In this document: positions 44,059-64,000 of the stretch, piece after piece
Layout of the letters: each line of letters starts with the position of its first letter
Position numbering within the stretch: position 1 is the stretch's first letter
Source of the DNA: Dictyostelium discoideum
Lineage: Eukaryota
Direction of reading: 5' to 3'
DNA length: 64,000 nucleotides
NCBI GenBank assembly: GCA_000004695.1
Contig: CM000151.3
Span: forward strand, 1,408,001-1,472,000
Made by a program: the position numbers and the translations under genes
Notes under the pieces: model-generated
The model's input: only the letters and a program-made list of their open reading frames with translations
Database searches by the model: none
What the model was told of the DNA's origin: nothing

Positions 44059-47000
44059 ATGACAACATCAACAATTGAAAATGGAGCATCATCACCAATT
44101 ATTGTATCATCATCAACACCAAAACTTTATCAAGAAGGAGCAGGAGTATGGATACCAGATCAAGAATTAGGATGGATTGGAGCAGATGTAATTGAACATT
44201 CAGAGACATCAGCAGATCAAGTATTAGTTAGAACAGAGGATGATAGAGAAGTGAAAATACCATTAAGTAAAGTGTTTCAAAAGAATCCAGATATATTGGA
44301 AGGTGTTGACGATTTATCATTTTTATCACATTTACACGAACCTGCAATCTTACATAACCTCCATCACCGTTATAATTTGAACCAAATCTATACATATATT
44401 GGAAAGATTTTAATCGCAATCAATCCATACACATCATTACCACTGTATGGAAAGGAGATGATCAGTGCCTACTATGGTAAACAATTGGGTACATTAGCAC
44501 CACACGTTTATGCCGTAGCTGAAGATGCTTTCAAAGATATGCGTTATGATGGTACAAGTCAATCAATTTTAGTATCTGGTGAATCGGGTGCTGGTAAAAC
44601 TGAAACTACAAAATTCTTATTACAATATTTTGCTGCGATGGGTAATATGATTAAAGAATCAACATCATCATCATCAATAAATGGAATTAATACATCATCT
44701 GACGGTATCCCAGTAACACCACCACCTTCACCAATGAAAAAATCACCTGTTGATAAATCGGTTGAAGAAAGAGTTTTAGAAAGTACACCATTATTAGAAG
44801 CATTTGGTAATGCTAAAACTTTAAGAAATGTAAAAAAAAAAAAAAACAAAAAACAAAAAACAAAAAACAATTATCATTTATCATTTTCTAACTTTTATTA
44901 TTATTATAAATATTATAGGATAATTCATCTCGTTTTGGTAAATTCATTGAAATTCATTTTAATGAAATGGGTTCAATTATTGGTGCAAAAATTTTAACAT
45001 ATTTATTAGAAAAATCAAGAATTGTAAGACAAGTTTATAATGAAAGAAATTATCATATATTTTATCAAGTAAGTAATAGTATTTATATATATATTATATA
45101 TATAAAATATAAAAATAAAATTATTAATTTTTTTTATTTTTTTTTTTTTTTTTTTATTTTTTTTATTTTTTTTTTTATTTAAAAAAGTTATTATCAGGTG
45201 CATCAGAAGAATTAAAAGAAAAATTAAATTTAAAAACAATTGAAGAATATAGTTATTTAAATAAGAGTGGATGTTTTGAAATTGAAGGTGTATCGGATGA
45301 AGAGCATTTTAATAAGACATGTCATGCAATGCAAGTTGCAGGTATAACATTGGTTGAACAAGAGAATGTATTTAGAATATTATCAGCGATTTTATTGATT
45401 GGTAATTTTGAATTTGAAAATATAGCCGGATCAAATGATGATAGTTGTCAATTGATTGATCGTGACCCATTGGAGAAAGTATCGGTATTGTTAGGATGTG
45501 CACAACCTGATGAATTGTTGAATTCAATGTTAACACGTAAAGTGGTGACGGGTAAAGAGTCGTACATATCACATAATACAAAAGAGCGTGCTGAGAATGC
45601 AAGAGATTCATTGTCAATGTTTTTATATGGTATGATGTTTGATTGGTTGGTTGTGAAAATCAATTCAAGTATGTCGATTTCAACACAACAAAAATCCAAA
45701 TCGTTCATTGGTGTATTGGATATCTATGGTTTTGAATCGTTTGAAGTGAACGGGTTCGAACAGTTTTGCATCAATTATGCCAATGAAAAGTTACAACAAT
45801 TATTTAATCAACACGTTTTCAAAGAGGAGCAACAGGAGTATATAAAGGAGAAGATCGATTGGTCATACATTGATTTCAATGATAATCAAGATACTTTGGA
45901 TTTAATTGAAAAGAAACCCATTTGTATATTGACCTTACTCGATGAGGAGACTATGTTCCCCAAGGCCACACCTCAGACATTGGCAACTAAACTTTACTCA
46001 AAAATGACAAGTCATAGTAAATTTGAAAAGCCACGTTTCTCATCGACTGCTTTCACAATCAATCATTATGCTGGTAAAGTAACCTATGAAACTGATCAAT
46101 TCCTTGACAAGAATAAGGATTTCATAATTCCTGAACAAATTTCAATTTTACAAAGATCAAATTTCTCATTCATTAAAGTGTTAATGTCACATTCTGATAA
46201 GTTCACTCAATCACCTGGTGGCCATCCACAAGGTAATGGTGGTCCAACTTCTTCCAATACAAAGGGTACTTCAGGTTCATCGTCAATGAAATTCCTTTCT
46301 GTTGGTTCACAATTTTCAACATCACTTGCAACTTTAATGAAAACTATTTCAACTACAACACCACATTACGTTCGTTGTATTAAACCAAATCCAGAGAAAT
46401 TACCTCAAACTTTTAATAAACAAGATGTAATTCATCAATTACGTTGTGGTGGTGTTATGGAATCTGTTAGAATTTGTTGTGCAGGTTTTCCAACTCGTAG
46501 ATTATTATCTGAATTTTATCAACGTTATAAAATTTTATATGTAAAAGATATTAATACTGGCAGTGGTGGTGGTAAGAAAGGTTCAAATAATAATAAAATT
46601 AAAGATCCAAAAATTTTAGTTCAAAATTTATTAACTGGTATTGAATTATCAGATGATAAATATAAGATTGGTTTAACAAAAGTATTTTTAAGAGCTGGCC
46701 AATTGGCAAGTTTAGAAGATATGAGATTGGAGCAATTGGATCGTAGTGCAACAGTTATTCAAAAGAGATGGAAAGGTTATTTATATCGTAAACGTTATAA
46801 ACAACTTAGAGATGCATCATTGATAATTCAAACTAAACTTAGATCAGTACATGCAAAACAACAATTATCAGCATTACAACGTACTCATTCAGCCATTTTA
46901 ATACAAAAAGTTTGGAGAGCTCATAGGGATAGAGTTCAATATCAAAAGATTAGAGATGCTTCATTACAATTGCAAACTGTAATGAGAAGACATTTATTCT

Positions 47001-51780: not shown

Positions 51781-51990
51781 AATTCTTGAGTAGTTTATAG
51801 CATTTATTAAATTAGGTCGTTGTAATTCTAATGTTCCCTTACATTAAAGAAAAAATGACCATGTGGGTCTAGATTTTCTTTATGGTGGAGAAGTTCAATG
51901 GTGAACTTCTTGCATGATTTTTTTTTTTTAACTTAATATTAAAAATAAGGATTAACCAAGTAAGATAAAGAAAAGCACTTCCCAATTTAA

Positions 51991-54900
51991 TCAACATTTT
52001 TTTTTTTTTTTTTTTTTTGATATAAATAAACTATTGTAGTATACGATTAGTATGTTATTTTTATTTATTTATTTTAGGTTTTTTAGTTTTTGTGAATTTA
52101 AAATGGTATGTTATTTTAGATTAGGTAATTAATAATTAATTGGTGGTGTAATTGTTGGAATTGGTTCATTTGTGTTTATGCTCCATTCTTTTTTAAATTT
52201 TTTGATTGTTTCGGACCATTGGGTTTCTTTTTGAGTTTTTGTGAGGTTGTTTTTAATTGAGTATTGGTTGAAGTTTGATAATGTTCTTGAATATTCCAAT
52301 CTTATTAGCTTGTGCCATTTTGATTTTAATATATCATAATCTAGTGTTGTGTTGTTTATTTGATTGTTCCGATTATCAAATGATTGAGTTATATTGATGT
52401 CAAATAATGATTTGCATAACCATATCCATATTTGGTGAATAACTAATGAGATTATGTTCCAATATGCATGTGTTCTGACTAGATCAAGATTTGTGTTTAT
52501 ATAATTCCAGTTGAACCTGTATTTTTTATATTGTGCGTTTTCTGCAAAATGAAAATTAATATTGATAGTTGGATCTGGTTTAAATGCTTTGTTGTTTGTT
52601 TGTGGTTTATAAATGAGTGTGTATAATTTTGTTGTTTGGTTTTTTGTTAGTGACCAGTTTTTGTTTCTATTGCAATTTTTATATAAAAAATATTTTAATT
52701 TGTCGTGGTTTATGAAGTTGATTGTGTGCTGACAATTGAAAAACAAATGACCATAGGGATCATTATTCATTTCATTGTTGCAAATGGGGCAAACTTTGTT
52801 GTGTAGATGATTAATTGGAAGACATCTAGCATGGAATCTTTGCATTGTATCACGGCCTTTTGGATCTTTTAATTTTTGAATTTTGACAAATAGTTGGTCG
52901 TATGTGTATTTCCATAATAGTTGTATTGATTGTTGGTGCGAAGTAAGAAGTAGATCTGAATATTTCTTGCCAACATAGTCTTTTGATTTGCATTGGTGAT
53001 TGTTGAGTATTGTCGAGTAGAATTCTTTGAGTGTTGGTGGTAGTGAAATATTATTTGTGGTTAATGTTAGAGAGGTTTGGTTTTTTATTAATATTGGTTG
53101 TAGGATTTGAACTTTATCTTTTAGATGTCCAATTTGAGTTGCATAGTTTTCCCATTTTTTTGATTTTTATAAGGTATGGAGAAGAGATTGATTTGTTGAT
53201 GATTTGATCCATCCAACTTATCATGTATATTGAATTGTTTGCAGATTTATGCATTTGTAAAAATCTGTTGTATATCCAAATCTTTTGAGCAACTTGTCGT
53301 AATTGTATATTCCACATACCCCAACCACCTTCTTTTAATGGTTTTAATGATCTATCATAACACATCAAAGGTATTTTTGCACGGAATGGATGGTTGATGT
53401 GTTGTTTTTAATGGAATTGGTATTAGAGTTGGTGATTCAGAATTTGCGGGAGAATTCATAAACCATGAGATTAATTTATTAATTTGAATTTCTTCATCTT
53501 TTGTAAATTCTTCAAGGTATGATAAATATGTTATTGGTGATAGTGAGTAGGTGTTTATGATGGTTGTTTTTGTTTTTAATGTTGTGCCACTAGTTTTCCA
53601 TAGTACTAATGATTTAATCAGTGTTTTCATTGTTTCTGGTAATTTCCTATGTAAACCCCCTATGATTAAAGAAATAGCCAAGGACTCTTTCTGATTGATC
53701 TTTTTTGGTTATTGGGATTCTTTTTGATTGTGGAATGTTGTTTATTATGTGTTTATCAGTGATTTTGTGGGGGTTGATTTCTATTATTGCACTTTTGTCA
53801 AAATTTAATGATGATGATGTTGAAGCGCAGAAATTATCGAAATGTTTGATTGATTGTTGTTGTTGTTCGTAGTTGATGTTGTATGTTGTAGAGTCGTCTG
53901 CAAATTGGGTAAATTTGATTTTAATTTGTGGATTGGGTGAAATTGGTAATCCAATTATTGAATTGTCTGCATTTATTGTTCTTGCTAATATTTCAATTAC
54001 AATTACAAATAAAGTGGCTGAGATTGGGTCACCTTGTTTTACACCTCTTTTAATATCGAATTTTCTGGTCGTTTTACCATTAATTGAAATTTTTGCTTGT
54101 GAGTCAGATAATAGCTTGTGGATTAAATTTATTAATTTTATTGGTATACCAATATGAATTAATGTTCTTTTAATGCTATCGTGAGAGATAGAATCAAATG
54201 CTTTAAAGAAGTCAAATAGTGTGATGATACCAGGGAGGTTTTTAGATTTGAGGTAGTTGATTAATTCATTGATGTTGATGATGTTGTCTATGATGAATCT
54301 GTGGGGTACGAAACCAGTTTGGTTGTTATTGATGATGAAAGGAAGTATTCTCAGAAGACGTGCATTGATTACTTTGAGAGGGATCTTGTAATCAGTGTTT
54401 AGAAGTGTAATGGGACGACGATTTGATATGAGTAAGGGGTTGCCTTTCTGGTATATTGTGTGTATAAGACCTTCGGTGAATTCTGTTGTGATGTGGTGTG
54501 GATTTTCTAGTATATCGTTGAATAATGTAGTGAGAATTGGTTTAACTTGGTTTAAATGATTAATGTAAAATGCATTTGTAACTCCATCTGGACCGGGTGA
54601 TTTGTTGGGGTTACTGGTTTTAATTGCAGCTTCAACTTCATCTTTTATAAAAGGTGAGTCTAAACCATTCCAATATTCATTTTTTATGATGGGCCATGTG
54701 TTTAGCATGAGCTAGTGAGTAATTGGACAACATATTTGTAAGCTATATAGATTTGTGTAGAATTCAACAAAAGCATTTTCAATTTGGTCGGGGTCGGATG
54801 TAATGATGTTTCCATATTGGATTGATTCAATTTTTGCATCTTTTGATCTTTTGTTTAGTATTGCTGATAGATACTTGCTAGGTATTTCTCCATTTATATG

Positions 54901-57230
54901 TTTTTTTAATATGTTTGTGTGGTTTTGATGTAATTTGTTTTTGTTACATATAATATTGTATTCAGTGATGCATTGTTCTTCAAGATGTTTGAATTTTGCT
55001 GCTTTTTCTAATAGTATTTGTTTTGCACGTTGAGTTTGTTTGTCTTTGTTATATTGATAGTTTTTTAGAGTTTTAATAATTTTTGATTTTACTTTTGACC
55101 AATTTGTAAATTGATTGTTGATGTGTTATTGTGATTAGTTATTAAATGATTGATAATATTGATTGCTTCATGGTCATTTGCAGTACCAGGTGATAATATC
55201 CATCTTTTCTTATGTTTATTTATTTGAAAAGGTGAAGAAATTGTTGTTGATATTGGATTATGATCTGATAATGAAGATGGAATTTGGTGGACTTGTGTAT
55301 ATATATTTTCAGGGTCTATTCTATTGTATTGAGTATATATTCTATCTAATCTGTTACCATGTGTATGAGTTGGAGTGGTTTTTAAATTCACCTTGATCAA
55401 TTAGATGGTGTTGGTATGTGTAGGATTGGATAATATCATCTAATAGTGAATTGTCGTTGTGGATACAGTTGAAATCTCCTGCGATAATAGATACATGTTG
55501 GGATTGGTTTGGTATTGGGTTTGTTGAGTGGTTGTGGAGAAGTGTTTGTAGTGAAGTTGCATATGAATTCTTTTTGATGGTATTATTTGATGCTGGTGCG
55601 TAAATTCCAAGAATACCAATTGGTAATTGATTTGGAAATATAACGTCTGCTAAAATAGCTCTACCATCAATTGTTGATATGTGTTTGAGTTTGAGTGTGT
55701 TTGGGTTATGGTTAATGATGATTACACCATTTCCTCGTTTGGTGACAGAGATGATGTGATCGGGAAAATCATGTTTAAGTTGTAATGGTGATGAATTGAG
55801 TTCAGTGAGTATTGAAATTGTTGGACGCGGTGTAAGTTTTGATATAAGTAGTTGTAGTGTGTCAACAGGTTTTTGGTAGGAATTGTGGTGATTGTTGGGG
55901 TTTTCAGTGAATCCTCTACAATTCCATGTTATAAAGTTGATTTTTGAGCTCATACCTTACTAGGTTTGGAAGCACCAGTATTGACTGGTTGTGTAGTCAG
56001 GGCATTGCTGCTTCTTCTTGGATTTATTGGATTTGGAGTTGGTGCACTTGGTTTGTTTGGTTGAGATTGTAGAGGTTTTTGTGGTACAATTGTTGGATCG
56101 GTTGGATTGCTCATTGATAATGAGTTTTTCCCGTTATTATTATTTGAAGAATCACTTTTGTGTGAAATTTCATTATTGTTTTGGGATTGATTGTTAATAT
56201 CAAGTGATTCATTTAGTATAGCTTTTGAACCACTATTTTGAAGTGAGTTATTATTGCGATTGGAATTTGCAATTTCGTTGATTGGTGGGGTGTTAATGTT
56301 GTTTTTTGGTGGTTGATTGTTTTTGTTCATGTTTGGGTTTGTGATGGCATTTTTTATAGTTGTTGCCATATCTGCATTTTTTGCATGTTGAATTTTGTGT
56401 TTAGTGACACTACGTGTTGCAGCTTTGATATATCTTGTGATACCAGATGGTTGTTCGATCTTTTGATCAACAATGTTGTGTGTGTGATCAATTAGATGAT
56501 ATGTTATAATGTAACTTTTAAACGCAACAGCATATGAGTATGTGACAGTAAATGATTCAATTGATGTACAACTGGTGAATTTAGTGAGGTTGTTTGTAAT
56601 TGCCTCGTTTGCATGTTTGGGTGAGTACGTTTTAATGAATGTTTTAATGATTGCATAATCATTTGATGATATATCGAATCTATAGTTGAGTTTGTCGATA
56701 TTTAGTGCAAGTTGGTTTTGAAGGTTGATTATTGAAGTTAATTTATCAACGTTGCAATTTACGAAGGCAGTTGCACCAATTATTTTAAATGCTGATGGCG
56801 ACAGTATATCTTCGAAGAGTTTGTGAATGTTTTTGTGAATTTGTTGGATTCTTGTGTCATCTTTAGAGGTTAATTCTTCACGGATGTGTGGTTGATTAAA
56901 GTAACACTTAATGTTGATGGTGTTATTGTTTTTTTCTAAGAAAGAGAGTGGTCTTGTGATTGATGGAGGTGCAATGATATCTAATTGATTATCAAGTCCT
57001 TTGTTTAGTGAGAGTTGGTTTGTTGGGGTTTGTTTTTTAGGTGTGTCGATTTTTGCACTTTTGTTTTTTGTTGTTGAGGTTGTGGAGGTATTATTTGTAG
57101 GTTGTGTTGTTATCTGTATGATTTAACTGTAATTCAGTTGAGTGATCATCAGCCATTGTTGAAAAGTATATAGGACGATAGCCCTTGCTTTATTGAGCAA
57201 AAAAAGGGTAAAATTAAGAGGAATGAATGT
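51991..57230 (-). mobile_element. tRNA-gene-targeted non-LTR retrotransposon (TRE3-like), about 5.2 kb. It has an ORF1-like region, an ORF2 with APE endonuclease and reverse transcriptase, a C-terminal Cys/His motif, and a 3' oligo(A).
   Basis: The ORF pieces on the - strand are: ORF1-like 56369..55950 plus upstream out-of-frame coding to ~57160; APE endonuclease 55953..55354 (ITWNCRGF...SIIAGDFNCIHN); RT 54708..53647 (PITLLNTDYKIPLKVINARL, FDFFKAFDSI, QGDPISATLF, FADDSTTY); then 53681..53355, 53368..53114 and 52845..52129 (CPICNNEMNNDPYGHLFFNCQH). The stop at 52129 is followed by ~110 nt and then A28 (T-run at 51991-52018 on +). Multiple frame changes between the ORF pieces mean this copy is probably non-functional. 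The 5' end lies ~120-180 bp downstream of the tRNA-Phe 3' end, in the same orientation. Together with the size and ORF order, this points to TRE3 rather than TRE5. Confidence 0.8.
52129..55953 (-). pseudogene. ORF2 (APE endonuclease, RT and Cys-motif domains) of the TRE3-like element, disrupted by at least 5 frameshifts.
   Basis: Six overlapping ORFs in different frames (55953..55354, 55400..55089, 54708..53647, 53681..53355, 53368..53114, 52845..52129) together reconstruct one ORF2-type polyprotein. Confidence 0.7.
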
Positions 57231-57312
57231 GGCGGTGAAGATATAACAGTGATTTATTTATTATATGTATAAATTCTCGTTTATTTCTTTGTTTTTTCGG
57301 TATCAACATATA

Positions 57313-57322
57313 GAATCGAACC
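57313..57322 (-). promoter_or_regulatory. External B box (ex-B, GGTTCGATTC) about 30 bp downstream of tRNA-Phe.
   Basis: The reverse complement of GAATCGAACC is GGTTCGATTC, which matches the Pol III B-box consensus GGTTCGANTCC. It is embedded in a T-arm-like fragment TGATCGCCGGTTCGATTC that lacks the rest of a tRNA. This is the arrangement described for the extra B boxes of Dictyostelium tRNA genes. Confidence 0.5.
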
Positions 57323-57350
57323 GGCGATCATACCAACAATTAAAAAAATT

Positions 57351-57424
57351 TGCCTCAGGCCGGGATCGAACCAGCGACCTTAAGATCTTCAGTCTCACGC
57401 TCGTACCAACTGAGCTACTAAGGC
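57351..57424 (-). tRNA. tRNA-Phe (anticodon GAA), 74 nt, followed by a T7 Pol III terminator.
   Basis: The reverse complement is GCCTTAGTAGCTCAGTTGGTACGAGCGTGAGACTGAAGATCTTAAGGTCGCTGGTTCGATCCCGGCCTGAGGCA. It has a 7-bp acceptor stem (GCCTTAG/CTGAGGC, one G-U), a D arm GCTC-AGTTGGTA-GAGC, an anticodon stem TGAGA/TCTTA with loop CTGAAGA (anticodon GAA), a T arm GCTGG-TTCGATC-CCGGC and discriminator A. A-box and B-box consensus are intact. TTTTTTT follows immediately on the - strand (57343-57349). Confidence 0.88.
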
Positions 57425-57483
57425 TTTTATGAAATTTCTGTTTTTTATAGCAGTATAAATATTATAAAACGGAAAAAAAACAA

Positions 57484-57757
57484 ATCTCTTTTTTTGATTA
57501 TTTCATTTTTCATATAAAAAAGACTTAAAAAACAAATAAATAAATAAATAAACTATCTTAAAAAGCCATCTTTTTACTTTATTGTAATTTATTATTTGTT
57601 TCGTTTTGAGAATTTTGCGTAGCAAAATTTTCAAAAAAAAGCAAAAAATAATCAGATCGAAAAAAAACAAACAACAACAACAATCTCTTTTTTTGATTAT
57701 TTCATTTTTCATATAAAAAAGACTTAAAAAACAAATAAATAAATAAATAAACTATCT
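57484..57757. repeat. Near-identical ~75-bp direct repeat, two copies 200 bp apart, starting ~60 bp upstream of the tRNA-Phe 5' end.
   Basis: 57484-57559 and 57684-57757 both read ATCTCTTTTTTTGATTATTTCATTTTTCATATAAAAAAGACTTAAAAAACAAATAAATAAATAAATAAACTATCTT. Confidence 0.8.
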
Positions 57758-57810
57758 TGGACAAAAAAGATGTTTTAATCAAAAGTAATAATACAATTCA
57801 AAATTCGAAA

Positions 57811-57851
<41 letters not shown>

Positions 57852-57894
57852 TAAACCAACCCCTCTTTTAGAGACCCTGTAAAAAAAAAAAAAT

Positions 57895-58150
57895 AAAATA
57901 AAATAAAATGAGATCTAGCATCTCAAGGAGAAGCAAATAATAATTGCGTTATCCAATTCAAAAAAAAAAAAAAAATATTATAAAACTCTTAGACCATGTA
58001 AAAAAAACTAAAAATAAAATGAGATCTAACATCTCAAGGAGAAGCAACTAATAATTGCGTTATCCAATTCAAAAAAAAAAAAAAATATTATAAAATATTT
58101 TCAAAGAGAAGCAACTAATAAATGCGTTATCCAATTCAAAAAAAAAATAT
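57895..58150. repeat. Tandem repeat, about 2.4 copies of a ~113-bp unit.
   Basis: The unit AAAATAAAATGAGATCTAGCATCTCAAGGAGAAGCAAATAATAATTGCGTTATCCAATTCAAAAAAAAAAAAAAAATATTATAAAAC recurs at 57903, 58016 and (partially) 58100 with a few substitutions. Confidence 0.8.
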
Positions 58151-59055
58151 TGACAATCAAAAATGTCGAATTTTCCCTTTTGATGGTTTTCTGTAGATAA
58201 TAACCCAAAAATGGTCATTACTTTTATTGAAGCTATAGTCGTTCGTTACAATAATAAAAATTAGTATTATTTTAATTATTCACTTTTAGCAGATTATGTC
58301 AACTCATTTAATAAAATATAAAATGTAAATTAAAATATTATTATCAGTTTTTTTTTTTGGATTTTACTATTTAATAATAAATAAATCTTATTTGTTTTTT
58401 CAATTCTATGTATATTCAATCAATTTAATTTAATTATAAAATATAAAGAGAATTGAAAAATTAAATAATTTAAGATTAAATAGATCACTTTTGTTAAATT
58501 TACTTTTGTTCCATTTGCTTTACTTTTATTTTCTTTTTTTTACATAGACTACTTTTGTAACACAGTTATAAATTATGTATCGAAAGAATTCTTTGTAATG
58601 AAAGTAAATGTATCTAAATTAAATGTAACAAAGTATATGTAACGAAAGTGTTCTATTGTAATCCAATCGAAAGTAATAATTATTCTTTCTTTACTTCTTT
58701 TATTGATAGTGTAGAGTTATAGATATTAAAAAAAAAAAAAAAACAAAGTTGCATTAGAATACACAAAATGCATTAATGAAATATTCCAAGAAAAAAAAAA
58801 AAATATTCCTGAAATAAAAAAACGGCAAGTTTGAAAAAGGATAAGGAAATTTTCTTTTTTTTTTTGTTCTAAAGTACACTTTTTTATTTTTTTTTTTATT
58901 TTTTTTTTTAATTATCAGATTGATAAATTATAAATTTTGTAAATTTGATTTGAACTATAATGAATAAATTATTGTGAAGAAAAAAAAAAAGGGAAATAAA
59001 AATGGAAAAAAAAAAAAGTATAAAAAAAAAAATTTTGAAAAAAACTCTTTTTCTT

Positions 59056-60117
59056 TTAAAGTAAACCAAGTTGTTTGATATATTGGAATTGCTCAGGAAT
59101 TTCTTGAAGAGCGGCAACTGCAAAATCAACTTCTCTATTTTCAGCTTTTGCCATTGTTGTGTGGAATGGTACAAATTGGAAATTATCAAATTGTCTTTCT
59201 GGTAAATCATCATCAAATTTCTCCCTATTTAATAATAAATAAATAAATAAATAAATAAGAGTTAGTGAAAAACAAAGATATACAATTAATAGTTTTCTTT
59301 TTTTAAAAAAAAAAACTTACATTGTATCCCAAGGACCATCACCAACACCAATACAAATGATTGAAATTGGATATTTTGAAGCTTCTTCAATAGCTTTAAT
59401 GGTTTCATTTACAACGGATACTTCACCATCAGCAATGATTACTAAAATATGATATGCCTTTGCTGCAGCGGTAATATTTATTGTTTCTCTAATGATTGGC
59501 GCAAATGAAGTTGGACCTGATAGAGAAACCAATGGAGTGATTTCATTATATTTTTGTAAAACTTCATTGAAACCAAAACAAGGTCTTTCGGTTGTAAAAG
59601 AGAATACACTCTTATCGGTAGTTCTTGAATCACCAAAACCATAGGTTGGTAATAAATTATCATCATCAAATACTGATAATGTTTTGCCAATAATTTCAAT
59701 TGCTTCTTGGTATGGATTTAACATACCTGGTTGAATATCATGTAAACATTTACCTCCAAATGTTTTTTTACCATTCCATGTATTACTTTTTGTCTAAATT
59801 TTTTCAAAATAAATAAAATAAAATCAATTGAATAATTAATAATCTATTATTATTATTATTATCTATTATTATTATTATTATTATTTTTATTGCACCCTAC
59901 TTACATAATCAATTCCAATGATTAAATTTGATGATTCTAAACCAGCAGTACGTAAAGCATCTTGTACTTCTTGTAAGGATTGGAATTTATCTTTAATTGG
60001 TTGGAATTTAACTTTATTTTCTAATGGTTTCTTACCGTTGTAGCCACCTCCGCCACCACTTCCACCACCACCACCATGTCCCATTGTTCCTTGATGTTTT
60101 GATCCTCCGCAACCCAT
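59056..60117 (-). CDS. Copine-like von Willebrand A (copine A-domain) protein with an N-terminal myristoylation motif, 3 exons: 60117..59905, 59793..59321, 59224..59056 (284 aa).
   Basis: MGCGGSKHQG... begins with the MGxxxS motif. Exon 2, TKSNTWNGKKTFGGKCLHDIQPGMLNPYQEAIEIIGKTLSVFDDDNLLPTYGFGD...YHILVIIADGEV...PISIICIGVGDGPWDTM, is the copine/RGLG-type vWA core. Exon 3, EKFDDDLPERQFDNFQFVPF...EVDFAVAALQEIPEQFQ, is the conserved copine C-terminal segment. Donors are GTAAGT at both junctions, phases 0 and 2. No C2 or RING domain is present. Confidence 0.8.
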
Positions 60118-60169
60118 TTATTTATTTATATGTGTAAGTGTTTTAAAAGAGAATAAAAAAATAATATTT

Positions 60170-60209
<40 letters not shown>

Positions 60210-61032
60210 TATGATACTGTGAGAAATAATAATTTTTGAAATAAAGAAATTATTATTGTTATTATTTTATTAGAAATAAAAAATTTTGTTTTTTTTTTTT
60301 TTTTGTGTTTTTGTAATTATTAAGTATTCGTTGTTAATATTAATTTGAATTGAATTGAAAAAAAAAAAAAATTTAAAAATAAACAAACCCTTTTAAATTT
60401 TAATTTAGCTACCACAACGGAAAAAAAAAAAAAAAAAAAAAAAATTAAAATAAAATAAATTCAAAAAATTAAAAAATAAAAAAAAAAAAAAAAAAAAAAA
60501 TAAATAAAATTTCAAAGAATAGACGAAGTGTTTTTTTGAGTGTTAAACTGGTTATTAATTATCATGATTGTTTTTGTTAAAATAATTAGAATAATATTTA
60601 AGTATGAGCGACATAGTGGAATTCATATGGTAGTTCTGATGGGGAAACAAGAGAAAAAAAACAGAATGATTATTAAAAAAAAATAAAAAAAATAAAAAAA
60701 AATAAAAAAAATAAAATATCTTTTTTATAATTTTATACTCAACAAAAAAATTATTAATAAAATAAAATAACAAAAAAAAAAAAAAAAAAAAAATATAATA
60801 ACTGCAATTAATTTCTTTATACTTGATTAAATTTGTAGAGTGTTTATATTTTTATTTTTATTTTTAATTTTTTTTTTTTTAAAATACATATTTAAAAATA
60901 ATAATAATAATAATAATTCACACCCCCAAAATATATATTTTTTTTTTTATTTTTTTTTTTTTTTTTTTTTTTTTTGGATAGGGATAAATCTTATTTTTAT
61001 TTTTTTATTATTATTATTATTAATATGAAGAT

Positions 61033-61782
61033 ATGAATAAAATTTATTTTTGTACAAGTATTTTCAAAATATTATTAAGTTTAATAGTTTTGGGAATTTT
61101 TATTACCCTAATTAATATAGATAGCAATAATGAAATTTTAATTATAACAACAAAAACATATACACATTCAATTGATATAAATGGTAGTGAAATTGGAAAT
61201 AGAGATTATAAAGAAATAAAATACCATATATCATTAAAACATACAGATATTATAATTAAAGAAAATAATAATGATAATTATAATAATAATAAAAATATTG
61301 AAATAATAAAAATAAATAGATATTTATATAAAAATGAAATTAATAAAGAAAATTATTTAGAAATTAGTAATCATTTTTCAAAGATTGAAAATTTATTATA
61401 CTCTTTTTTAATATTTATATTTACAGAATTTATAATAATTTTAATATTATTTTTAATACCAATAAAATCAAAAATGAAAAATCAACCAAAAATTATATAT
61501 AAAATAAAAATAATAATTTATACATTTTTAATTATACTTTTCTTACCTTTATTTATTATAATGATGGATTTAGTATCAAAAGATCTTAAACAAATTTTAT
61601 TATCAATACCAATTTTAAAACCAATTTGTTTAGATTCAAAAAGCAATGAAATTGGATTTTGTAAAGAATATTATTTAGGAATTTATAAAATTGAAAATGA
61701 AACTTTAAAAGAATATGATTCAATTAATAAAAATTTAAAAACTGGTTTTGTATGTTATTTATTATTTTTTTTTTTCTAAACA

Positions 61783-61821
<39 letters not shown>

Positions 61822-61989
61822 GAAAATATATATAATCATGTCAATTTATTTATTAATTTTTTAAAATTTATAGGAGTCCTATGAATGGGAAAATGGGCCA
61901 TTATATGAAAAGTTAATATCCATTTTAATTCAAGTTATAATATTATATATAGCAATAGTATCTTTAATAGTTTTCGAATATGGAAATAA
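61033..61989 (+). CDS. Hypothetical multi-pass membrane protein, 2 exons: 61033..61749 and 61873..61989. It is a tandem paralog of the next gene.
   Basis: An N-terminal signal-anchor (FKILLSLIVLGIFITLI) is followed by ITTKTYTHSIDING, later TM helices and CLDSKSNEIGFCKEYY. The GTATGT donor and TTTATAG acceptor join it to ESYEWENGPLYEKLISILIQVIILYIAIVSLIVFEYWK*. The motif order parallels the ORF at 62684. Confidence 0.5.
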
Positions 61990-62683
61990 AAGAATTAAAA
62001 AATCCAATAACCCATACACTTTTAGAAATTAAATAAATAATAATTGATATTATTTTTTTTATTATAATAGTAATTTGTTTTCGGAGTCAAAAAAAAAAAA
62101 AGAATTTATAAATAAAAACCTCTAAAATCTTTATTTAAGAGAATAAGTAAATAAAAGGTGAAAATACAAAAAAAAAAAAAAAACAAAACACCCCTCTCAC
62201 CCCCTCCCACACCCCACAATTTTCGAAACTAATAAAACACGTTTATTTTTTTATTACCACCAGATGTATTTATTTTATATTTTTTTATATTATTTTTTTC
62301 ATTATAATAAATGGTTATTGTTAATTATTATTATTATTATTTTTATTTCATATTTTTTAAGTTTAAAAAAAGAATTTTTTTTTTTTTAAAAAAAAAAATA
62401 CTTTAGTTTTAAATTTTAAAACTTAAAAATTTTTTGTTATACATAATAGTATGGGAATTTAAAATCCTGAACTAATTTTTTTTTTTTTAATAGATAAAAG
62501 AAGGAAAAAAAAAAAAGTGATATCATAAACAATTTTTTTTCAAAAGTCTTTTTTTATTCAATTATGTTAAAATACCAAAATTTAAAAATAAATTTTTAAT
62601 TTGTATAAAAATAAAAAATAAAAAAATGGAAAATAAAAAAGGAATAATTTCCAAGATTAATTGTTGCCTACTTTTATTAATCT

Positions 62684-63898
62684 ATGTTGGGAGCATTTAT
62701 TAATATTCAACCAAATAGATTAATTGAAATTCATACAAAGACCTATAAATTTATAAATAATACAAATAATACAAATAATAATAATAATAATAAAACAACT
62801 CATTATAAATTTGAGTTTTCATTTCAACATTTGGATATAATCGATAAAACTAACCCAAATTTAGAAAATAATACATATAATATTGATAGAATAATATATA
62901 AACCTGAAACTGCCTTATATAATTTTTTTAACTATTTCAAATTTTATTATAAAATCTTTATTTCCTTTACAATCACACTTTTTGTTTCAATAATTTTTTC
63001 ATTCTTTTTACCAAATTCCTCAACTTTAAATTTTAATTCAAATAATAATAATAATAATAATATTCAAAAACAACAAAATTCAAGAGAATTAAATGAATTT
63101 TCAATTAATTATAATGATAATAAATTAAATTATAAATTAATAATTTATTTTATAATTATTTTAAATTTTATACCAATTTTAGTATCAATGATATTAATGA
63201 TTTGTTTAGATTTTAAAAAAGCATTAATTTCAGATGTTAATTATTATGAAATTTTAAAAATCCTTTGTATTGATGATAATGGTTCAAGATTTGGGTATTG
63301 TTCAAATTCTAATTTCATAACACAAGATATAATTAAAAGATCAATTTCAAATGAAATTTTAAAACAACATACAATTAATATTGATTCAATTACATATCAA
63401 CATGATTCATTCTGGTGGAGAGATTCTTCAACATTTATTAGAATTACAATTTCATTTATCTTAGTTATTATATTATTATCTGGTTTAATAATTACAATTT
63501 ATACAAATTTAATTGACGATTTAAAAAATCAATATAAAATCAATGAATTATTAAAATTAAAAAATAATCAAAATAAAAGTGATGATAGTAATAATAATAA
63601 TAATCAAGCAAATTCAATTGAAATGAAAGATTTTAATAAAACTATTGAAATTTCAAAAAAACAATCGACTCCAAATTCACCTTCAACTCCATTTGGTAAA
63701 CAATCAATTTATCCATCACTTTCATCAATGGGTTCATTTGATCAAAGTTATTCAAGTGGTTGTGGAAGTAGTGCCAGTGGTAATAGTAGTAGTAAAAATA
63801 TTGCCACATGTAGTAACAATTCAATTCAATCATTGATTAGTGACCATTCCCAGTCACAATTACCTACTTCACCAAACACTTCAACCTCTTCTATATAG
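62684..63898 (+). CDS. Hypothetical membrane protein (404 aa ORF), paralog of 61033..61989 with a Ser/Thr/Asn-rich C-terminal tail. A probable N-terminal signal-anchor is encoded out of frame at 62626..62691.
   Basis: IEIHTKTYKF...CIDDNGSRFGYCSNSNF...DSFWWRDSSTFIRITISFILVIILLSGLIITIY parallels ITTKTYTH...CLDSKSNEIGFCKEYY...ESYEWENGPLYEKLISILIQVIILYIAIVSL in the upstream gene. The upstream ATG at 62626 encodes MENKKGIISKINCCLLLLIYVG in frame +1 relative to the main ORF. Confidence 0.5.
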   Translation: MLGAFINIQPNRLIEIHTKTYKFINNTNNTNNNNNNKTTHYKFEFSFQHLDIIDKTNPNLENNTYNIDRIIYKPETALYNFFNYFKFYYKIFISFTITLFVSIIFSFFLPNSSTLNFNSNNNNNNNIQKQQNSRELNEFSINYNDNKLNYKLIIYFIIILNFIPILVSMILMICLDFKKALISDVNYYEILKILCIDDNGSRFGYCSNSNFITQDIIKRSISNEILKQHTINIDSITYQHDSFWWRDSSTFIRITISFILVIILLSGLIITIYTNLIDDLKNQYKINELLKLKNNQNKSDDSNNNNNQANSIEMKDFNKTIEISKKQSTPNSPSTPFGKQSIYPSLSSMGSFDQSYSSGCGSSASGNSSSKNIATCSNNSIQSLISDHSQSQLPTSPNTSTSSI

Positions 63899-63916
63899 TA
63901 GTAATAATTAAGGAAT

Positions 63917-63952
<36 letters not shown>

Positions 63953-64000
63953 TATGTGTGAAATAAAATTGATTTTTTTTTTTATTATTTAGTTTTTTTT

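Follow-up and report, generated by a model that had tools for sequence, protein, structure and literature searches.

Gene 2 of a tandem pair on chromosome 2 of Dictyostelium discoideum (DDB_G0272272) is annotated in the AX4 reference as a truncated protein, and the truncation is most likely caused by a local patch of base-calling errors in this Sanger-era sequence, at six sites within 54 bp. The stretch analysed, a reference segment of 64,000 nucleotides that is called the window here, has 21.8% G+C, poly-Asn tracts and short AT-rich introns. According to the mechanism proposed, gene 2 would be a normal, conserved four-transmembrane gene with its start at ATG 62626 and the signal-anchor MENKKGIIPRLIVALLLLSMLGTFINIQP. 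The AX4 reference would have been misread at 62648-62701 (TT as TTT, CCC as CC, A as AA, GA as AG and A as T), the resulting net +1 shift would put ATG 62626 in another frame, and annotators would have resorted to the internal Met 62684, which yields a 404-aa model without TM1. It is seen directly that the differences exist, that they lie close together and occur in the window alone, and that the intact frame is conserved; from this we infer errors rather than real AX4 mutations.

The long open reading frame of gene 2 extends from ATG 62684 to 63898 on the forward strand and encodes 404 aa beginning MLGAFINIQPNRLIEIHTKTY. Its product matches exactly XP_645201.1 / Q559Y3, which is listed on chromosome 2 of D. 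discoideum AX4 as "hypothetical protein DDB_G0272272". The ATG at 62626 opens an ORF of 25 codons, MENKKGIISKINCCLLLLIYVGSIY followed by a stop (62626..62703, +), and the long ORF lies in the next frame relative to it. The first-pass annotation of the window had noticed this arrangement, with the signal-anchor of the second copy out of frame, ATG 62626 leading to a stop and the main ORF running from 62684, and inspection of the reading frames agrees with it. The two frames are fused by the removal of one G from GGG 62689-62691.

At 90% identity, the cluster of the AX4 gene 2 protein has a single other member, KAM9951775.1, which is an intact protein of 423 aa that starts MENKKGIIPRLIVALLLLSMLGTFINIQP and comes from contig JBTAPE010000001.1 of the D. 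discoideum assembly GCA_054883475.1 (JBTAPE01 below). The first-pass annotation had asked for an independent assembly at 62685-62700, and JBTAPE01 contradicts the window there. Alignment of the DNA with the intact allele revealed six differences across 62648-62701 (Table 1), namely three 1-bp indels in short runs and three base differences (an AG/GA swap and one T/A), so that the window strings AATTTCC, GCCTAC, TTAATC, GGGAGC and TTATTAAT stand against AATTCC, GCCCTAC, TTATC, GGGGAC and TTATAAAT in the intact sequence. The first two indels cancel after six scrambled codons (SKINCC for PRLIVA), and the third is uncompensated and leads to the stop. The first eight codons from ATG 62626, MENKKGII, are the same in all orthologs, and the remaining codons are frame-scrambled in the window. 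The single-base fix near 62692 that had been proposed at first is not supported, since with six sites and not one involved, a one-base repair opens the frame but yields the wrong peptide: the N-terminus rebuilt in this way contained ...IISKINCCLLLLIYVGAF..., while the conserved sequence, in the second assembly and the orthologs, is ...IIPRLIVALLLLSMLGTF.... Once corrected, the true coding sequence of gene 2 would be 62626-63898, for a protein of 423 aa. Beyond this stretch the ORF has no damage, and the two D. discoideum assemblies agree in it at 100% identity.

Table 1. Coordinates of the gene pair, the difference cluster and the C-rich element (window positions unless a locus is named)
Feature	Position	Strand	Remarks
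Gene 1 exon 1	61033..61749	+	signal-anchor TM1, TKTY extracellular loop, TM2, TM3, C...GFC loop; ORF and splice model
Gene 1 intron	61750..61873	+	124 nt, GTATGT...TAG, AT-rich, A(31) run
Gene 1 exon 2	61874..62032	+	ESYEW motif, TM4, basic tail, TAA stop included
C-rich element	62182..62226	+	...CACCCCTCTCACCCCCTCCCACACCCCACA..., CCCACACCCCACA core; about 400 bp upstream of ATG 62626
C-rich block in other species	L002 6189-6232; L003 6294-6314; L005 6100-6133; L007 4824-4852		
Gene 2 ancestral start	ATG 62626, in 62626..62703	+	A-rich context AAAAAAATGG; 25-codon ORF in the window
Gene 2 as annotated in AX4 (DDB_G0272272 / Q559Y3)	62684..63898	+	without TM1; TM2-TM4, Cys-pair loop and Ser-rich tail kept
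Difference cluster	62648..62701	+	6 differences in 54 bp vs the intact JBTAPE01 allele; net +1
Site	62648-62650		window TTT, other assembly TT (+T in window)
Site	62667-62668		window CC, other assembly CCC (-C in window)
Site	62679-62680		window AA, other assembly A (+A in window)
Site	62692-62693		window AG, other assembly GA
Site	62701		window T, other assembly A

The related species show which of the two sequences is ancestral. Gene 1 has four orthologs with 100% coverage, in D. cf. discoideum, D. dimigraforme, D. citrinum and D. firmibasis, and all four genomes have the gene order myosin, copine(-), gene 1(+), gene 2(+). In each of the four, the gene 2 ortholog is a single uninterrupted ORF starting M[ED]NKKGIIPRL[IF][VI]A[LI][LI]LLSMLGTFINIQPN. 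D. purpureum has the same tandem pair beside copine, and its gene 2 ortholog, EGC30204, also has a hydrophobic N-terminal anchor. A look at further family members, which the first-pass annotation had recommended for finding the ancestral N-terminus, was informative: the signal-anchor is uninterrupted in the second D. discoideum assembly and in all five of these other species, and it reads MENKKGIIPRLIVALLLLSMLGTFINIQP in the five closest genomes. At each of the three indel positions the window stands apart from JBTAPE01, D. cf. discoideum, D. dimigraforme, D. citrinum and D. firmibasis, and it alone has GCA where these have the Thr codon ACA. Over codons 1-37 of the five intact sequences, pS is 0.08-0.46 and pN 0-0.06 (pN/pS about 0.05-0.13), and this large excess of pS over pN means that throughout the clade the frame opened by the counterpart of ATG 62626 is translated and kept by purifying selection.

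The signal-anchor is therefore ancestral, and its loss is excluded at the level of the species. Evolutionary loss of the anchor or pseudogenisation of the second copy in D. discoideum, with a protein made from Met 62684, is very improbable, as the AX4 annotation is all that speaks for it. The conspecific genome has an intact 423-aa ORF, so the lesion is not common to the species as a species-level pseudogene would have it, the rest of the ORF is undamaged, the strong purifying selection on the first 37 codons gives no sign of relaxed constraint on the stranded segment, and a three-transmembrane remnant clashes with the conserved four-transmembrane layout. A copy that had genuinely lost its anchor, one of the options first considered, is thereby refuted for both species and clade, and where the first-pass annotation had named orthologs beginning at the internal Met without an anchor as evidence against its reading, the opposite was found, an anchor in every ortholog.

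The most likely source of JBTAPE01 and the other new assemblies is the work of Holland et al., PNAS 2025 (PMC12745789; PRJNA1300491), a study of AX2-214, two wild D. discoideum, two cryptic sister isolates, three D. citrinum, D. dimigraformum and D. intermedium, assembled from Nanopore plus Illumina reads (PMC12745789). JBTAPE01 is probably the AX2-214 assembly, given the zero SNPs in 7.5 kb and the order of the WGS accessions (E, H, K, M) relative to the order of strains in Table 1 of PMC12745789. With a reported gene diversity of 0.0014-0.003 in D. discoideum, about 10 SNPs would be expected in 7.5 kb for a wild isolate and none was seen, which points to AX2-214. AX2 was derived from NC4 as an axenic strain separately from AX3/AX4, and a true difference between AX2 and AX4 must thus be of laboratory origin. 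The combination of Nanopore and Illumina reads makes non-homopolymer bases reliable in the comparison assemblies. In the window, each of the long A/T homopolymers at 57812-57818, 60950-60953 and 61788-61793 exceeds its JBTAPE01 counterpart in length (by 7, 4 and 6), which is probably due to Nanopore homopolymer compression in JBTAPE01 and is opposite in direction to the error at the 62648-62701 patch. This known Nanopore bias is also what could be said for an error in JBTAPE01, such as a Nanopore artefact, with the window correct; such an error is extremely unlikely, as JBTAPE01 is Illumina-polished like the other assemblies, agrees with four independently assembled species at every indel of the cluster and keeps the conserved ORF.

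The comparison between the window and JBTAPE01 was stretched to 51,983-64,000, via gene 1 plus 10-kb flanks; for extending it upstream, exact look-ups of the window ORFs 53647-54708(-) and 44059-44997(+) gave no match. The unique sequence from about 56.5 to 64 kb (7.5 kb) has zero substitutions outside 62648-62701, and the only other differences are in the lengths of long A/T runs (57812, 60950 and 61788) and a single T at 62320. Of the seven events outside homopolymers, six thus fall inside 54 bp, for which a uniform spread would give a probability of about 1e-10. The retroelement at 52-56.5 kb has about 1.6% divergence between the window and JBTAPE01, though the unique flanks are identical, and being a multi-copy repeat it says little on the cause of the cluster.

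This distribution bears on the possibility that the patch is a real, complex multi-site lesion at the 5' end of gene 2 in the AX3/AX4 lineage, for example an error-prone repair patch. We hold such a lesion to be unlikely, even though the window sequence is that of the public reference, the comparison strain appears to be another laboratory derivative, so that a lineage-specific change is formally possible, and AX4 has other changes of its own, such as the chromosome 2 duplication (PMC12745789). It would need six independent-looking changes in 54 bp and none in the flanking 7.5 kb, and with a reported base-substitution rate of about 2.5-2.9e-11 per site per generation in D. discoideum, this is not credible as independent mutation. 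In addition, miscounts of 2-3-base runs and a swap of adjacent bases are typical of base-calling; they are the mark of a poor Sanger read and not of known mutagens, and nitrosoguanidine gives G:C to A:T transitions, unlike the changes of this cluster. Were the lesion real, AX4 would be a natural null or hypomorph, which is unlikely to the same degree, with the gene kept in AX2 and the wild relatives, as the strong upstream ATG 62626 would divert ribosomes into the 25-codon ORF.

Base-calling error in the reference remains the best account of the cluster. The differences occur in the reference only, and neither in a near-identical independent assembly nor in the outgroups. A sequencing indel had been among the explanations offered in the first-pass annotation, and it is favoured by the clustering of the differences, their uniqueness to the window and the intact frame of the other assembly and the orthologs. 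When AX4 lines were re-sequenced, 1,916 departures from the reference proved to be common to the lines and were put down to reference errors or differences in the ancestor (PMC3466296). The gene 2 patch is comparable to a reference error in that its differences are unique to the reference, clustered, situated in short homopolymers and disruptive of an otherwise conserved ORF. The literature searched does not list the gene 2 locus as a reference error, and the attribution made here rests on comparative evidence; no match was obtained when the N-terminal 136 aa served as a protein query to pick up read-derived fragments in other D. discoideum data sets. That the reference has been public for more than 20 years and the 404-aa model was never corrected is counter-evidence, though weak because the gene is unstudied, and neither DDB_G0272272 nor DDB_G0272402 is mentioned by its id in the literature searched.

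A frame that is disrupted in the DNA could also be rescued in vivo, either through a programmed ribosomal frameshift or through the splicing of a mini-intron of 31 nt (GT 62663 ... AG 62693), whose removal would restore the frame arithmetically. The probability of this is close to negligible. The orthologs read straight through the stretch as coding sequence, and three separate shifts would be needed to match them. An intron of 31 nt is far under the known size of Dictyostelium introns (124 nt in the neighbouring gene), and its excision would take away the hydrophobic core of TM1. A programmed frameshift was rejected as well, as the orthologs are all single uninterrupted ORFs, with no conserved frame change at a slippery site.

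The relationship between the two genes was upheld, with one correction to the structure of gene 1. This had been taken as 61033-61989, but it consists of two exons (Table 1) separated by an intron of 124 nt and encodes 291 aa. Excision of 61750..61873 leaves the frame intact and gives exactly the database protein, the spliced product being identical to KAM9951774.1. The AX4 model DDB_G0272402 (114 aa) is the C-terminal third of gene 1 only. The D. purpureum ortholog of gene 1 is likewise split into two models, EGC30202 (70 aa; L007 3719-3957) and EGC30203 (147 aa; L007 4112-4618). The description of genes 1 and 2 as tandem paralogs was supported by BLASTP, with 28% identity over about 300 columns and an E value of 3e-11 with composition correction. 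The common motif order reported for the two also holds, as TKTY, the C...G[FY]C (C-x10-C) pair and [ED]S[YF]xW align between gene 1 and gene 2.

Both were first described as uncharacterised membrane proteins, and hydropathy is in keeping with this, with four hydrophobic segments each in gene 1 and intact gene 2 and three in the AX4 404-aa model. Basic residues are found before TM1, in the TM2-TM3 loop and after TM4, which suggests an N-in/C-in topology with two extracellular loops, the first of them predicted to be beta-rich. Loop 1 has the motifs TKTY, HxDI and NRxxY, and loop 2 has an invariant Cys pair (C-x(10)-C), which probably forms a disulfide, and [ED]S[YF]xW adjoining TM4. In the absence of TM1, loop 1 would be cytosolic and the charge pattern unfit for N-in/C-in, which makes the 404-aa model biologically implausible. 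Gene 2 has a poly-Asn tract in its cytosolic TM2-TM3 loop (63040-63065), with 7 Asn in D. discoideum but expanded beyond 50 in D. dimigraforme, D. citrinum and D. firmibasis, and D. cf. discoideum alone has a second tract, after TM4, expanded to about 50.

The pair forms an orphan four-transmembrane family, seen so far in D. discoideum and in close relatives as distant as D. purpureum. Pfam searches with the family members gave no match above threshold, and a profile search of PDB sequences gave no match. In a full HMMER profile scan of 1.84 billion representative proteins there were only five matches, which all belong to Dictyostelium (both paralog clusters, plus three models of D. purpureum); the search with the full-length gene 2 protein was swamped by poly-Asn words and returned the AX4 protein alone. 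The mean pLDDT is 54 in the AlphaFold model of gene 1 and 60 in that of intact gene 2, where 189 residues reach at least 70, and at this moderate confidence both models have four long helices and a beta-sheet drawn from both extracellular loops. Fold searches with these two models gave no significant match, the weak top Foldseek matches being TARP gamma-5 fusions, the claudin-like domain protein DUOXA1 and a designed claudin fold, and also synaptophysin.

The family shares with the Claudin / PMP22 / TARP-gamma proteins the four transmembrane helices with both termini cytosolic, as judged from hydropathy, basic residues and the predicted models, and in the AlphaFold models also a large beta-rich ECL1 to which ECL2 adds a strand. 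It differs from them in the ECL1 signature W-x(17-22)-W-GLW-C-x(8-10)-C, as there is no GLW and the Cys pair is in ECL2 instead. None of PF00822, PF13903 and PF06653 scored above the gathering score, and the single match was Claudin_3 at E 1.1 in one member. MARVEL-domain proteins (synaptophysin, occludin) also have four transmembrane helices, and sub-threshold MARVEL matches were obtained in four of nine family members, but the best had an E value of 0.045 and about 13 bits against a gathering score of 32.8 bits (PF01284). To our knowledge, MARVEL proteins do not have a large beta-rich first loop, unlike the gene 1/gene 2 family. Tetraspanins, which have a small ECL1 and a large ECL2 with a CCG motif, were rejected, as ECL1 of the family (about 70-85 aa) equals or exceeds ECL2 in size and the CCG motif is missing. 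A claudin-like fold may serve as a lead, the hints for it being weak, and the family is placed in no known superfamily.

Upstream of gene 2, a C-rich block is found in five species, 150-410 bp 5' of the gene 2 start, in an intergenic region of about 80% A+T. It is likely a promoter element, and presumably similar to the CA-rich / G-box elements known from Dictyostelium promoters under developmental control. The copine gene (59056-60117(-)), with Copine / vWA domains, 284 aa and two introns, is divergent to gene 1, and the N-terminal MGCGG of its product is likely a myristoylation/palmitoylation motif. The copine / gene 1 / gene 2 neighbourhood is kept out to D. purpureum, where copine is on the strand of the pair. 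Between the class-V-like myosin and copine genes, a non-LTR retroelement (about 51980-57100, with Exo_endo_phos and RVT_1 ORFs) lies beside tRNA-Phe(GAA) 57351-57424(-) and looks tRNA-targeted (TRE-type); it is absent from the equivalent position in D. cf. discoideum, D. dimigraforme, D. citrinum and D. firmibasis.

For curation, these results mean that DDB_G0272272 / Q559Y3 should be extended to 423 aa from ATG 62626 and DDB_G0272402 to 291 aa instead of 114 aa. Topology, signal-peptide and orthology analyses of the AX4 proteome give the wrong answer for both genes, and frame anomalies in the AX4 reference should be compared with the new long-read Dictyostelium assemblies before they are given a biological reading. 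If the window were correct after all, which is improbable, AX4 would differ from AX2 and all wild relatives in a clustered lesion that knocks out a conserved, Dictyostelium-specific four-transmembrane surface protein, perhaps of claudin-like fold, and AX4 and AX2 would be a ready natural knock-out pair for this orphan membrane-protein family. The stranded start itself brings no new biology, and the gene pair is a genuine, mildly interesting orphan four-transmembrane family limited to Dictyostelium.
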